From Dehalococcoidia bacterium (GTDB taxonomy: Bacteria > Chloroflexota > Dehalococcoidia > SHYB01), in contig CAXXHW010000006.1 of assembly GCA_963666265.2 (NCBI GenBank), positions 822,325-886,324 on the forward strand: 64,000 bases of DNA, in the 5' to 3' direction. The position numbers and the translations under genes were made by a program. The notes under the pieces are model-generated. The model was given only the letters and a program-made list of their open reading frames with translations, was not told the DNA's origin and ran no database searches. This document shows positions 37,380-64,000 of the stretch, piece after piece. The number at the start of each line of letters is the position of its first letter. Position 1 is the first letter of the stretch.

Positions 37380-37401
37380 TCCTGCGCCAGGCCCGACGTC
37401 A

Positions 37402-37430
37402 TTGACGAATCCTATGCGCCATATTAAAGT
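37402..37430 (+). promoter_or_regulatory. Sigma70-type promoter for the sulfite reductase gene
   Basis: TTGACG-17 nt-TAAAGT. Confidence 0.55.
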
Positions 37431-37493
37431 TATGAATCGGTACCCTAGCCATAGCAGGTGATTTTTTGGTACGGCACGAACCACTAGTGAGGT

Positions 37494-39293
37494 ATGGAAA
37501 GCATGACCACCGCCAAAGAGGCCAAAAAGGCCAAAGGCGTTATACCGACGCTGCCGGAAGAGCTGGATTACTTTGAAAGCGGAGTGAAGCGGTTTCAGGG
37601 TGGCGACATTCCCGAGGCTGACTTCGTCGGCTTTCGTTTGAAGCAAGGGGTATATGGCCAGCGCCAGGCTGACGTTCAGATGATCCGAGTCAAGATCCCT
37701 TTCGGCGGGCTTACGGCGGACCAGATGGAGGCCATGGGGCAAACAGCGGAAACGTACACCCCGTTGAAAAAGGGACACATCACGACCCGAGAGAACATGC
37801 AGTTTCACCATGTACCGCTGGCAGAGACCCCTGAGTTTCTCCGGGTCCTTGGCGACGTTGGGCTATCGACCCGCGAGGCCTGCGGAAACACTATGCGAAA
37901 CGTCGTCGGGTGCCCCAAGGCCGGCTGCTGCTCCGGAGAGACCTTCGACCCCACACCCTATGCCGGGGCCTATGCCCGCTACTTTGTGCGTCACCCCGTT
38001 ACGCAGCTGATGCCGCGAAAGGTCAAGAGCGCGTTCTCAGGCTGCGAAGACGACTGCGCAATGACCGCCATCCATGACTTCGGGTTCATCTCCAAGATCC
38101 AGGAGGTCGACGGCGTTCCCAGGAAGGGTTTCAAGGTGGTGGTCGGCGGCGGCACCTCAATCATGCCTCGCATTGCCCCCACGCTCTATGACTTTGTGCC
38201 GGTTGAAGAGTTCCTGAAGGTCGTCGAAGCGGCGCTCCGTGTCTTCAACCGTTCCGATATAGAGCGGAAGAACCGGATGAAGGCCAGGATCAAGTTCATG
38301 GTGAACCGCCTGGGCATCGATGAGTTTCGAAAGCTGGTGGAGGAGGAGCTCAAGGAGCCGTGGGCCCAGCAGGAGATCGACCCCACGCCGCTGCTGTTCG
38401 AGGACGACGAGTTGGCCGAGGCCCCACCGGTCTCGTCTAACGGCCACGCCGCCTCCAACGGCCACCATTCCCCGGAGTTCGAGCGATGGGCCTCCACCAA
38501 CACCGTGCCGCAGAAGCAGCCGGGCTATCGGATGCTTTACGTGACGGTCCCCCAGGGAGACCTCAGCCCGGCGCAGTTCGCCGGCCTGGCGGAGATCGCC
38601 AGGAAGCATGCCGGGGGCAGGGTGCGCACCACGCAGCAGCAGGACCTGATCTTGAGGTGGGTGCCCGAAACGGCGGTCTTCAAGGTCTGGGAGGAGCTGC
38701 AGGCGCTGGGCCTGGTCGAGCCCGGTTACAACGAGATCACGGATGTCACCTCTTGCCCTGGCACCGATAGCTGCAAGCTGGGGATTACCTCCTCGATGGG
38801 ACTCGGAAATTCCATGCGGGATACTCTGCTGGACATGAAGATCGACGACCCCGAGATCCGCAAGATGCACGTGAAGATCAGCGGCTGCCCCAACGGCTGC
38901 GGCCTGCATCACGTCGCCAACGTCGGCTTCCACGGGGCGGCGATCAAGGGCGCCGGCGGCCAGCAGGTCCCAGCCTATGAGGTATACCTCGGCGGCAACA
39001 CCGACGGTGACCGAGAGGCCATTCGTATCGGCGAGCGCGTCTCAGGCCGGGTCCCTGCCAAGAGAGCGCCAGCGTTTCTGAAGGAACTCCTGGCCTTCTA
39101 CACCGCCGAGCGGCGTGAGGGGGAGGCCTTCAACCGCTTCGTCGACCGTGTCGGCGTCAAGAGCTTCGAGCCTATCCTGGCCAAGTACAAGGAAGTGGGC
39201 GCGCTCAACAAAGAGACGATTGACACCTACATGGACTGGGGGAAGACCATTCCTTATAAGCTGGAGCGCGGCGAGGGTGAGTGCGCCGTGTAG
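37494..39293 (+). CDS. Ferredoxin-dependent siroheme sulfite/nitrite reductase (probably assimilatory sulfite reductase)
   Basis: GVYGQRQ, HITTRE, ACGNTMRN, PRKVK, CPGTDSCKLG and SGCPNGCG siroheme/4Fe-4S motifs, C-terminal GEGECA. Confidence 0.92.
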   Translation: MESMTTAKEAKKAKGVIPTLPEELDYFESGVKRFQGGDIPEADFVGFRLKQGVYGQRQADVQMIRVKIPFGGLTADQMEAMGQTAETYTPLKKGHITTRENMQFHHVPLAETPEFLRVLGDVGLSTREACGNTMRNVVGCPKAGCCSGETFDPTPYAGAYARYFVRHPVTQLMPRKVKSAFSGCEDDCAMTAIHDFGFISKIQEVDGVPRKGFKVVVGGGTSIMPRIAPTLYDFVPVEEFLKVVEAALRVFNRSDIERKNRMKARIKFMVNRLGIDEFRKLVEEELKEPWAQQEIDPTPLLFEDDELAEAPPVSSNGHAASNGHHSPEFERWASTNTVPQKQPGYRMLYVTVPQGDLSPAQFAGLAEIARKHAGGRVRTTQQQDLILRWVPETAVFKVWEELQALGLVEPGYNEITDVTSCPGTDSCKLGITSSMGLGNSMRDTLLDMKIDDPEIRKMHVKISGCPNGCGLHHVANVGFHGAAIKGAGGQQVPAYEVYLGGNTDGDREAIRIGERVSGRVPAKRAPAFLKELLAFYTAERREGEAFNRFVDRVGVKSFEPILAKYKEVGALNKETIDTYMDWGKTIPYKLERGEGECAV

Positions 39294-60886: not shown

Positions 60887-61474
60887 ATGCCGGGTGGTAG
60901 TCAAACGATCATGATCCATGGTGGACTGAAAAAGACGAGGGGCGCGAACTGGCTTGCCAAGGGCCGGCTACTGGCATTCGCGGTCGTCCTGGGTCTTGTC
61001 GTGGCCGGCTGCACCAAGGGCACTTACCAGGTGGATATCTTCCCGGAGATGCACTACAACCAGTCGCTCAAGAGGCAGGAGCCGCCGCGGTTGGACCCAC
61101 CCGAGGGGGCGGTCCCCATCACCGGGCGTGAGGTGGCGCTGGACTTCGCCACGGCTATCGAAACCGCCAATCCTCTACCGGTAACGCAAGAAGTACTCGA
61201 GGGCGCCGCCGAGCTTTACCGGGTGAACTGCTCCATATGCCATGGTACGCAGGGGCTGGGGGATGGGACGGTTGGAGTGATGCTGGAGCGGGATGGTTAT
61301 GTCCGTCCTCCAGCACTGGTACGGGACGCGACGCAAAGCCAGCCTGACGGTCAGATCTTCTGGACCATCTCCAACGGCGTGGTGGTCATGCCTAGATTCG
61401 GCCCCTTGATCAGCGAGGATGGACGGTGGTCCCTCGTCCACTACCTTCGATATTTGGCGGAGCAACAGGGCTGA
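60887..61474 (+). CDS. actE: Monoheme cytochrome c lipoprotein (ActE)
   Basis: LVVAGC lipobox, PPEGAVP, NCSICHG..G.GDG, MP axial Met, RW..V.Y. Confidence 0.88.
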   Translation: MPGGSQTIMIHGGLKKTRGANWLAKGRLLAFAVVLGLVVAGCTKGTYQVDIFPEMHYNQSLKRQEPPRLDPPEGAVPITGREVALDFATAIETANPLPVTQEVLEGAAELYRVNCSICHGTQGLGDGTVGVMLERDGYVRPPALVRDATQSQPDGQIFWTISNGVVVMPRFGPLISEDGRWSLVHYLRYLAEQQG

Positions 61475-61488
61475 GGAGGCCGCAAGGG

Positions 61489-61725
61489 ATGACGAGCGAG
61501 ACGAGTAACCCGATGGCCGGAGCGATGAAGTCCCAGGGGGGGACTAACCGACGGCAGTTCTTGTTCAAGGCCGCTGTCGGTCTGGCAGCGGTCGCGGGTC
61601 TGGGCACCGTCTTGGGACGCCGCCTGCGGCGGAGCGCCGGTACCGTGGCTCCCCTCCAGCTTGAAGAAGGCTCTATCTTCATGCCCAGAGAAGACCAGCG
61701 GGACCGGGTGCTCGGCGGAAGGTAG
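61489..61725 (+). CDS. Small protein consisting mainly of a Tat-like signal and short tail
   Basis: NRRQFLFK + hydrophobic stretch, then ...EGSIFMPRED; start uncertain (61489/61513/61525). Confidence 0.6.
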   Translation: MTSETSNPMAGAMKSQGGTNRRQFLFKAAVGLAAVAGLGTVLGRRLRRSAGTVAPLQLEEGSIFMPREDQRDRVLGGR

Positions 61726-61782
61726 CCCCGTTCTCTTGAGGCCGACGAAGAGTAAAGTAGCAGCCCGACAGAACAAGTTCCC

Positions 61783-61810
61783 TTGACAAAAAACGACTTA
61801 CTGTTAGAAT
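61783..61810 (+). promoter_or_regulatory. Sigma70-type promoter for cysH-cysC
   Basis: TTGACA-16 nt-TAGAAT with extended -10 TG. Confidence 0.7.
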
Positions 61811-61820
61811 GTTGATGCTG

Positions 61821-61898
61821 ATGATAGAAAATTTTGATAGGCAGCCTCGTAAAGGCATATCGAAGCTGGCAGTACCCGTGACCTGCACCTGTAGCTAG
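61821..61898 (+). CDS. Candidate Cys-containing leader peptide MIENFDRQPRKGISKLAVPVTCTCS
   Basis: Short ORF (in-frame ATGs at 61815 and 61821) just after the promoter; TGC ACC TGT near its end; terminator immediately downstream. Confidence 0.55.
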   Translation: MIENFDRQPRKGISKLAVPVTCTCS

Positions 61899-61902
61899 GA
61901 AA

Positions 61903-61954
61903 AGACAGCCCCCCAGGAGAGCGATGTCGCTTCCCCGGAAGGCTGTCTCTTTTT
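61903..61954 (+). terminator. Intrinsic terminator/attenuator in the cysH leader
   Basis: AGACAGCC...GGCTGTCT outer stem with inner GAGCGA/TCGCTT stem, followed by CTTTTT. Confidence 0.7.
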
Positions 61955-61983
61955 GTGTCTGTTAAGAGGAAAAGGACGTAGGC

Positions 61984-62694
61984 GTGGCGATGAGGACACA
62001 CACCGGGTTCGGCGTGGAGGAACTTCAGAGGATTAGCGAGAGCTTCGAGGGCAAGCGCCCCGAAGAGGTACTGCGCTGGGCTTTCCAGACCTTTGGAAAT
62101 AAGGTGGGGTTGGCCAGCAGTTTCGGGGGCGCTTCCGGCGCCGTCATCTTGGACATGGCAGCCAAGATCACCTCAGACGTCAACGTCTTCTATCTGGACA
62201 CGGACTTCCTGTTCCCGGAGACCTACGAACTCATCAAGGAGAGCTCTCAACGCTACGGTATCACCCCCGTCGCGTACAAATCGGACCTGACGCCTGATGA
62301 GCAGAGCGCAAAGCACGGCGCCGCACTATGGAGTCGTGACCCGGACCTCTGCTGCGATCTCCGCAAGGTCCAGCCTAACCGGAAGGCCATGGCTGGACTG
62401 GACGCCTGGATCACCGGCATACGAAGAGACCAGAACCTTGGGCGCAAGGTCGTCGGTATCGTCGAATGGGACGAGAAGTTCGGCCTGGTCAAGGTGAACC
62501 CGGTGGCGCACTGGGGGAAGAAAGAGGTCTGGGATTACATCTTGGCCAACAACGTACCCTACAACGCCTTGCTGGACCAAGGATACAAAAGCATTGGATG
62601 CACATACTGCACCAGCCCTGTAGGGGGGGATGCGGATGATCGGGACGGCCGTTGGGTTGGGACCGACAAGACAGAGTGCGGGCTCCATACCTAA
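61984..62694 (+). CDS. cysH: APS/PAPS reductase (4Fe-4S-containing type)
   Basis: LDT.FLFPETY, CCDLRKV, WITGIRR.Q, GYKSIGCTYCT, ECGLH. Confidence 0.95.
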   Translation: MAMRTHTGFGVEELQRISESFEGKRPEEVLRWAFQTFGNKVGLASSFGGASGAVILDMAAKITSDVNVFYLDTDFLFPETYELIKESSQRYGITPVAYKSDLTPDEQSAKHGAALWSRDPDLCCDLRKVQPNRKAMAGLDAWITGIRRDQNLGRKVVGIVEWDEKFGLVKVNPVAHWGKKEVWDYILANNVPYNALLDQGYKSIGCTYCTSPVGGDADDRDGRWVGTDKTECGLHT

Positions 62695-62719
62695 GGCACA
62701 CTACGGAGGATGAACTACG

Positions 62720-63271
62720 GTGAGTAAGGGGTTTACGGTCTGGTTCACGGGCCTGTCTGGGGCAGGAAAAAGCACTCTGGCGGAGAGGCTGGGGCCGGCG
62801 CTGCAAGAACGCGGGCTCAACGTCGAGCTGCTGGACGGCGACGTCATCAGGACCAATCTCAGCAAGGGCCTCGGTTTTAGCAAAGAGGACAGGGACACCA
62901 ACATACGACGTATCGGCTTCGTTTGTGATCTGCTCACTCGCAATGGCGTTGTCGCCATCGCCTCGGCCATCTCTCCCTACCGGGATGTCAGAGACGAAGT
63001 GCGGAAAAGCATCGGTGACTTCGCCGAAATCTTCGTCAAGTGCCACATCGACGAGTTGGTGAAGCGGGACGTGAAAGGCCTTTACGAAAAGGCGTTACGC
63101 GGCGAGATCAAGAACTTCACGGGGGTCTCCGACCCTTACGAGGAGCCCCTGACTCCTGAGGTATTGGTGGAAAGCGACAAAGAGACCGTGGAAGAGAGCC
63201 TTGACAAGATTATTGCGCGGCTGGAAGAGCTGGGCTACCTGGCGCCAGCGGTCGTTCCGGCAACCCGCTAA
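62720..63271 (+). CDS. cysC: Adenylyl-sulfate kinase
   Basis: [44 protein letters not shown]. Confidence 0.96.
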
Positions 63272-63284
63272 CTCAAATAAAGTC

Positions 63285-63335
63285 AAAAAAGAGAGGGACC
63301 CGGATTTTAATACGCCTCCGGGTCCCTCTCTTTTT
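63285..63335. terminator. Bidirectional intrinsic terminator
   Basis: AAAAAAGAGAGGGACCCGGA...TCCGGGTCCCTCTCTTTTT between convergent genes. Confidence 0.9.
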
Positions 63336-63344
63336 GCCTCGTAG

Positions 63345-63830
63345 CTAGCCGCCGTAGTTGAGATTGTGGTCCCGCATGAGGATCGTCTGGTCCTCTCGCC
63401 GGACACCGGCTTCCAGCACCTCACCCACGAACAGGGTGTGGTCACCTTGCGCCACCTCGCCGACCACCTTGCACTCCCACCACGCCGGGGAGCTGAGTAG
63501 CAGGGCGCAGCCGGTCTCTTTCCCCGTCTCGTAACGCTCACCACCCACGCTGTTCTCCTCGGGCTCGTGGGACTTGAAAAAGTTGAAGGCCATGTCCTTC
63601 TGGTCTTTGCCGATCACGTTGAGAGCAAAGGTGCCCGTCTCTTTGATATGGGCATGAGAACCGGAGTCCGCCTTCACTCCAACCGCGATCAAAGGTGGCT
63701 GAAAGGAGGCCTGCGTGATCCAGTTGACCGTCGCGGCTCCTACCTGGGAGCCATCCTTACCCTTGCTGGTGAGGACAAACATGCCGTAAGGGATCATTCG
63801 CAGCGCCGTTTTCTTGGCTGCATCGTCCAT
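63345..63830 (-). CDS. Flavin reductase-like family protein
   Basis: LRMIPYG..VLT, QASFQPPL, FALNV, GDHTLFVGEV, YGG end. Confidence 0.9.
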   Translation of the reverse strand: MDDAAKKTALRMIPYGMFVLTSKGKDGSQVGAATVNWITQASFQPPLIAVGVKADSGSHAHIKETGTFALNVIGKDQKDMAFNFFKSHEPEENSVGGERYETGKETGCALLLSSPAWWECKVVGEVAQGDHTLFVGEVLEAGVRREDQTILMRDHNLNYGG

Positions 63831-63977
63831 GGGGTACCTCCTGGGATTGTTGCCGGCCCATTATATCCGAAACGCTCGGTCACGCCGGAATCGCGGGCGC
63901 GGGCGATGGATTGACCGAGCCGGGCCCCAAAGCCTAGACTGGGCTGCCTGCCACGTTCAAGGACAGAAAGGAGGCCC

Positions 63978-64000
63978 ATGTCCTGGATCGCCGGGGTCGA
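63978..64000 (+). CDS. Start of a CDS running off the window (MSWIAGV...)
   Basis: AAGGAGG RBS directly upstream of the ATG. Confidence 0.5.

Follow-up and report, generated by a model that had tools for sequence, protein, structure and literature searches.

Does a short reading frame that ends in cysteine codons just ahead of a terminator, and of the sulfate-assimilation genes cysH and cysC, serve a member of the Dehalococcoidia as a cysteine sensor? Ribosome-mediated attenuation is textbook material for Trp, His, Leu, Thr, Ile/Val and Phe, and its classical examples are the leader-peptide attenuators of amino-acid operons such as Escherichia coli trp and Salmonella his. For cysteine, such attenuation has rarely been described in print. 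A preliminary reading of the letters alone (the sequence-only reading) had proposed a cysteine attenuator of this kind in the window, the whole 64,000-nucleotide stretch of DNA that was analysed here. If the proposal holds, an uncultured lineage would govern sulfate assimilation, in its PAPS branch, through a terminator-based cysteine attenuator.

The leader and terminator ahead of cysH

The promoter, the reading frame, the terminator and cysH–cysC all lie where the sequence-only reading had placed them (Table 1). The promoter matches 11 of 12 consensus positions and is one of the 2 promoter-like sites that the region 61000–64000 contains, compared with 0.8 ± 0.9 in shuffled sequences. The terminator lies between the leader frame and cysH with the promoter 5′ of both, and no promoter-like site was found between terminator and cysH. 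Both genes were assigned by Pfam and NCBIfam, and their pathway matches the amino acid that would be sensed. In a metatranscriptome run, which had 0.13 of the sampled words, a single clean contig maps inside cysH (62172–62344), and the leader is covered by none.

Table 1. Promoter, leader, terminator and downstream genes, in window coordinates
Feature	Position	Strand	Details
Sigma-70-type promoter	61783..61810	+	TTGACA 61783-88, 16 nt, TAGAAT 61805-10; extended -10 TG 61802-03
Leader ORF	61815..61898	+	27 codons from ATG 61815, 25 from ATG 61821; end ...VTCTCS, stop TAG 61896-98
Candidate regulatory Cys codons	61884..61892	+	TGC 61884-86, TGT 61890-92, ACC between
Intrinsic terminator (putative attenuator)	61903..61955	+	8-bp lower stem, AGACAGCC 61903-10 paired with GGCTGTCT 61942-49, enclosing an inner hairpin; CTTTTTG follows; U-tract 61950-55
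cysH, phosphoadenylyl-sulfate reductase	61984..62694	+	PAPS_reduct; NF002537 250.8 bits vs cut-off 154
cysC, adenylyl-sulfate kinase, second gene of unit	62720..63271	+	NF002059 278.2 bits vs cut-off 244

From 61809 up to its stop codon, the frame runs for 29 codons without interruption. Its first ATG, at 61809, falls partly within the −10 box and should not be transcribed, which leaves ATG 61815 and ATG 61821, or the inner CTG 61866 and GTG 61878, as usable starts, all in the same frame. The sequence-only reading had noticed no obvious Shine–Dalgarno (SD) sequence, and a check of each of these starts found a clear one at none. The two ATG codons stand 5 nt and 11 nt after the −10 box, and leaderless initiation is possible. 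The only Cys codons of the frame both fall within its final five sense codons; that there are just two was counted against the attenuator reading. Contigs from X18, a run labelled sponge metagenome, map to 61659–61969, the part with promoter, leader and terminator, and show 0 to 1 differences from it, so near-identical strains have the same leader.

The base of the terminator stem is 4 nt 3′ of the leader stop codon, and the hairpin is 47 nt long, with a fold energy of −28.9 kcal/mol for a 65-nt piece. A simple terminator scan did not list it because the loop limit of that scan is 8 nt. The 176-nt leader as a whole folds modestly better than its shuffles (z = −1.77, with 9 of 200 shuffles equally good). 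No conserved antiterminator or alternative pairing was found by RNAalifold and masked folds, which mask the footprint of a ribosome, either in the window or in g2, the sister genus. The candidates that these folds yielded were non-conserved alternatives, such as GGCAGCC (61840–61846) with the 3′ arm, and are not relied on. This GGCAGCC is an upstream look-alike of the terminator 5′ arm, with GTCAGCC or CTAGCC as its g2 equivalents; it is weakly conserved and can pair with the 3′ arm when masking takes away the genuine 5′ arm.

The sequence-only reading had proposed a scan to exclude SAM riboswitches. An Rfam scan with E values up to 10 returned six matches, to eukaryotic and other models without relation to the leader; none came close to its threshold, and the best had 17.4 bits against a gathering score of 60; by these scores, no known riboswitch is present in the window leader.

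How often would such an arrangement arise by chance? In the genome of the window, there are 7,875 stop/terminator combinations when frames of every length are counted; among them, 154 frames that are shorter than 100 codons and adjoin a terminator-like hairpin have two or more Cys codons in their last eight. The sequence-only reading had left chance open, and for one locus alone this stands: chance occurrence is not negligible there, and the argument therefore rests on relatives, whose conservation removes the chance reading. The most similar frame in the genome (...PITCTC*, C6:678337) lies inside a 414-codon ORF, and the scan gave many alternate-frame matches. When the same genome was scanned for a promoter plus a terminator, 33 leader-like sites emerged. 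A Cys motif is present at 3 of these, of which two are within long ORFs and the third is the cysH locus, the sole such locus in this genome.

Conservation and class-wide distribution of the leader

One genus-level relative of the window was found, the metagenome contig L157, whose cysH is 90% identical. It retains TGC, TGT and TAG at the same place, together with the terminator, which differs by 3 substitutions and a 1-nt insertion (an A). The remaining aligned frame has 13 substitutions, distributed 5, 5 and 3 over codon positions 1, 2 and 3. Constraint thus seems to act only on the Cys codons and on the openness of the frame, the pattern that a leader peptide should show; as the substitutions have no third-position bias, the case for translation rests on just these two features. 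The same contig lacks 11 nt holding GTG 61984 (L157 140–150; window 61973–61992) and retains ATG 61990, which makes 61990 the more likely start of cysH.

Within the family, where 13 of the 14 other genomes have cysH, the first Cys codon is present in all nine leaders and the C-x-C pair in seven of them. All seven genomes of g2 have a respiratory operon, promoter, short ORF, terminator and cysH in the same order. Inspected by eye, the g2 promoters have TTGACA...TA(C/G)AAT boxes, and the leader ORFs, of 9–11 codons, begin with TTG or ATG, which an SD-like GGTGGGG precedes by 7 nt. These ORFs end in NVCTC* or NACTC* in four genomes and in NICICSR* in one; the other two of the seven leaders have a single Cys codon, the second being CGT or CGC, which was counted against the attenuator reading. 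An in-frame TGA just 5′ of the TTG restricts the ORF to 11 codons in one g2 genome. In the alignment, the short ORFs of g2 have their NTG starts in the same column as CTG 61866 of the window.

The lower stem of the terminator is kept in eight family leaders, and the upper stem shows compensatory changes. Because the alignment of the family leaders conserves little beyond the terminator, a plain pattern search was used. The pattern CAGCC-N25-45-GGCTGTNTNTTTT occurs exactly once in the genome of the window and once in each of the seven g2 genomes, always at cysH; it is absent from the other 7 of the 15 family genomes, and the reversed control gave 0 matches. In five other genera of the family cysH occurs without this leader, three of them in the same gene neighbourhood, and no Cys ORF was found upstream of sat, sir or the cysK-like gene of the window's genome; both observations were counted against the attenuator reading. 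Two genomes represent genus g8, of which one has cysH without the leader and the other gave no cysH.

At E ≤ 1e-40, cysH is present in 153 of 401 genomes of the class, a tally that includes the unpublished genome G247; this genome was left out when 100 additional cysH upstream regions were taken from the class. The 300 nt upstream of cysH were searched for two Cys within five codons and a terminator within 120 nt, with the reverse complement as control. Such a Cys-ORF plus terminator was found at 29 of 127 loci on the sense strand and at 0 of 127 on the reverse complement. The 29 loci are the window, 5 from g2, 22 from family f7 and one doubtful case; they amount to about 3 to 5 independent lineages, related genomes being non-independent.

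The f7 leaders come from one genus, and all 22 have an intact ORF of 34–39 codons (M..HSPS..A..AAVTCSC..MPVPGRE...); the motif V-T-C-x-C is common to the window and to every one of them. They contain two Cys codons in 17 leaders, three in 4 and four in 1, and the additional codons are in-frame insertions of 3 or 6 nt. The leader lies 5′ of cysH in a gene neighbourhood different from that of the window, and it is absent from one genome of a second f7 genus. The sequence-only reading had proposed to look for terminal Cys codons and a terminator in orthologous cysH leaders. Cys codons followed by a terminator recur in L157, g2 and f7, and the identification as a Cys attenuator gains from the Cys codons, stop and terminator kept in L157, from the Cys-ORF with terminator in 7/7 g2 genomes and from the classical four-region form in 22 of 22 f7 leaders. 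The elements, their conservation and their link to cysH are matters of direct observation.

Further Cys leaders precede cysH elsewhere. The one in G383, of family f60, has a terminator and an almost leaderless ORF with CCCCC. In L131 and L132, from metagenome-assembled genomes labelled Dehalococcoidia with a cysH 53% identical, the leader (...RTCSCMCSCCY..., five Cys codons) is also followed by a terminator. The attenuator of these two lies about 230–100 nt 5′ of cysH, after a sulfite-reductase-like gene, and is therefore inside the operon, not at its start. Where families of the class have no leader in the 300 nt before cysH, the gene may be an inner member of an operon. In other phyla, unrelated short ORFs with a CCC run precede cysH in L135, an Alicyclobacillus record (86–14 nt before the gene), and in L139, L167, L169 and L178, of Gemmatimonadales type; this last type of leader was seen at 3 of 20 metagenome loci examined.

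Ribosome position and the terminator

The f7 leader is laid out like the trp attenuator. Its Cys codons are on the 3′ strand of a hairpin, the codons after them (CCC GTC CCG GGG CGG) form a small 1:2 pair, and GGGGCGG is the sequence of the terminator 3′ arm and can pair with the 5′ arm CCGCCCC. Another hairpin, which contains the stop codon, covaries (CG 17, UA 2, UG 2). The 2:3 and 3:4 stems are invariant, so that covariation is neither for nor against them. In masked folds without region 4, the number of leaders in which the 5′ arm paired with region 2 was 20 of 22 when a ribosome sat on the last Cys codon, 18 of 22 when the RNA was free and 2 of 22 when the ribosome sat on the stop codon; in full-length minimum-free-energy folds, the antiterminator formed in 8, 1 and 0 of 22, respectively. 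These models suggest a reading in which a stall at Cys would give read-through and a completed peptide would give termination. An antiterminator exclusive with the terminator was also seen, by eye, in L131 and L132; none is recognisable in the window.

We regard the window element as probably a ribosome-mediated, Cys-sensing transcription attenuator of cysH–cysC in a minimal form that lacks an antiterminator. Transcription would start a few bases past 61810, and the short leader ORF, with two Cys codons among its last codons, would be translated. With plentiful Cys-tRNA, the ribosome would finish and depart, the hairpin would close and most transcripts would stop near 61955. With scarce Cys-tRNA, the ribosome would be held at 61884–61892, just before the hairpin base, where it would hinder the lowest pairs and RNA polymerase would continue into cysH–cysC. 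The window leader would then be a minimal version of the four-region Cys attenuator that other families of the class carry before cysH. In this scheme we infer leader translation, stalling, the readout of ribosome position and the sign of the response, the last because of the function of the genes and the classical relatives before cysH.

Neither the window nor g2 has a segment that separates Cys codons from terminator, and no conserved antiterminator was found in either, so the ribosome must work on the terminator itself. Counted from the first base of the last Cys codon, the first paired base is 13 nt away in the window, 14 nt in L157, 11 nt in three g2 leaders and 7 nt in four; the gap from stop codon to stem is 4 nt in the window and 1 nt, or an overlap, in g2. 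The sequence-only reading had a stalled ribosome masking the 5′ arm. A ribosome held 10 nt before the stem can plausibly block the closing of the lowest pairs, as that reading proposed. Masking from −15 to +12 at the last Cys codon removed the lower stem in 4 of 8 family leaders, trimmed it in 2 and left the window terminator whole; the eighth leader (G014) gave no terminator fold even when free. With the footprint extended to +15, the window loses 3 of 8 pairs. The companion claim, that fast termination lets the hairpin form, needs a kinetic argument, as a ribosome at the stop codon removed the lower stem in 8 of 8 family leaders. The steric mechanism in its original wording is the weakest part of the proposal.

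Measurements in E. coli bear on the same geometry. In the part of the source available (PMC4824070), a terminator 5 bp past the stop codon gave <10% termination, one at 8–9 bp was almost fully repressed and one at 17 bp worked at only 0.12 in one construct series. A terminating ribosome would also block closure of the lowest stem pairs, and as a stalled ribosome plausibly does so too, dwell time must be what distinguishes cysteine plenty from shortage, with quick release in the one and a long stall in the other. The 47-nt hairpin may give a finishing ribosome time to leave.

Tentatively, and with somewhat less than even expectation, we can go further and see in the window a two-element attenuator that is derived from the four-region Cys attenuator of the class, shares its V-T-C-x-C end and takes its decision kinetically. 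A finishing ribosome would leave before the polymerase gets to the U-tract, the stop codon abutting an unusually long hairpin of 47 nt, and a ribosome on a Cys codon 7–13 nt before the stem would hold the lowest pairs open. If this is true, the distance between ribosome and terminator and the length of the hairpin would be the tuning parameters of a natural amino-acid sensor.

The geometry could also be read the other way. In a translation-coupled attenuator that reports general translation, or cysteine with inverted sign, the ribosome at the stop codon would block the terminator and give read-through, and the terminator would form without translation or with a stall further back; the Cys codons would be minor or would switch the genes off in starvation. 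The removal of the lower stem by a stop-codon ribosome throughout the family, the intact window stem under a ribosome at the last Cys codon and the poor performance of the E. coli terminator 5 bp past a stop codon (in the available part of PMC4824070) all agree with it. An inverted sign is nevertheless not general across the relatives, as the stalled ribosome covers the stem in half of the family leaders, and cysH–cysC off in cysteine shortage would be physiologically senseless. The relatives with a clear antiterminator before cysH give read-through on a stall, and selective retention of the Cys codons would be left unexplained. We judge this reading unlikely.

Regulation without a ribosome, by an undescribed riboswitch or an RNA-binding protein, would make the Cys codons and the open frame incidental and the GTGACCTGC.C.TGT stretch a binding site. 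The lack of third-position bias in the ORF fits this idea, as do the absence of an SD sequence from the window ORF and the position of the Cys codons in a predicted hairpin in the window, g2 and f7. Extra in-frame TGY codons in 5 of 22 f7 leaders, together with the CCC or CCCCC runs of unrelated cysH leaders, point instead to codon counting and away from a fixed binding site. L157 retains frame and stop despite its 13 substitutions, the g2 ORFs have an SD 7 nt before the start (by eye) and no Rfam family matched; we consider a ribosome-free mechanism improbable, and return to cysteine sensing by the translating ribosome as the preferred reading.

It is very improbable that the hairpin has no role at cysH and serves only to end the respiratory operon upstream or a small independent RNA from the 61783 promoter: the operon does end at 61725 with no other terminator before cysH, and an A-tract 5′ of the stem with the U-tract 3′ of it would permit bidirectional action, but a near-consensus promoter stands between operon end and hairpin and none between hairpin and cysH, which would leave cysH without a promoter of its own, the same order recurs in all seven g2 genomes, and the f7 leader precedes cysH in a different neighbourhood.

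Relation to described leaders

Like the classical attenuators, the window has a leader ORF with end-product codons near its end and an intrinsic terminator before the genes, and the position of a ribosome would do the sensing. It differs in that cysteine would be sensed, in having neither antiterminator nor 1:2 pair and in a stop codon 4 nt before the terminator. Of the four classical sequence-level features, the window has three; the missing antiterminator is present in its relatives f7 and L131/L132. The full classical form and a minimal form before the same gene in one class would make a natural test of the RNA machinery that such a sensor needs.

One cysteine counterpart is uORFC-8-2, a predicted cysS leader of Rhodobacterales (Brewer et al. 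2021, PMC8632094). In the available part of that paper, two conserved Cys codons of a predicted uORF lie in a stem that is followed by an intrinsic terminator, with a proposed stall on low Cys-tRNA, as in our reading of the window. The differences, to the same extent of the source, are the gene (cysS), another phylum and sequence, tandem Cys codons at codons 14–15 and their place in the first of two stems; the window has cysH and Cys codons split by Thr.

Polycysteine leaderless sORFs of mycobacteria act on translation, and their authors describe uORF attenuation for cysteine as previously undescribed (Canestrari et al. 2020, 10.1101/834739, in the text available). Cys leader peptides without terminators have been predicted in Mycobacterium, Propionibacterium acnes and Bifidobacterium longum (Seliverstov et al. 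2005, PMC1262725, likewise in its available part). As far as these portions go, both share with the window Cys codons late in a very short and possibly leaderless uORF, sulfur genes and a role for stalling. In the mycobacterial sORFs, by the accessible text, the Cys tract is base-paired to the SD sequence of the following gene and terminator hairpins are lacking, whereas the window has a strong terminator and C-x-C in place of a run. The minimum-free-energy fold of the full window leader differs from them too: the stretch just after the U-tract, beside an SD-like purine run, is predicted to pair with an early segment (61832–61843) and not with the Cys codons. A precedent for the layout, in the sections of PMC1262725 available, is given by actinobacterial ilvB leaders, whose regulatory codons overlap the terminator and in which the ORF runs up to or into the hairpin without a clear antiterminator, a layout similar to that of the window; there, branched-chain amino acids are sensed, and in another phylum.

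The sequence-only reading knew of no such element in Chloroflexota. In the openly accessible main texts of the literature, we likewise found no Cys attenuator before cysH or in Chloroflexota. Cys leaders of this kind could give annotators a route to predicting cysteine-responsive genes in uncultured bacteria.

Around the leader, the genome offers some further observations. The segment 57523–61725 (+) resembles, by reading, an alternative-complex-III-like respiratory operon, two of whose ORFs were scanned. Among its ORFs are two large membrane ones, one of 172 codons, one for a cytochrome c (Pfam Cytochrome_CBB3) and a small final one, with a TAT-type signal, whose end is 58 nt 5′ of the cysH promoter. 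This final gene also precedes cysH in g2 and in three other genera of the family. Upstream of a sulfite-reductase-like gene (37494–39293), the stretch 37400–37493 (+) has a promoter-like TTGACG...TAAAGT and a 9-codon ORF without Cys, followed by six T, with no strong hairpin visible by eye; it could be another small leader.
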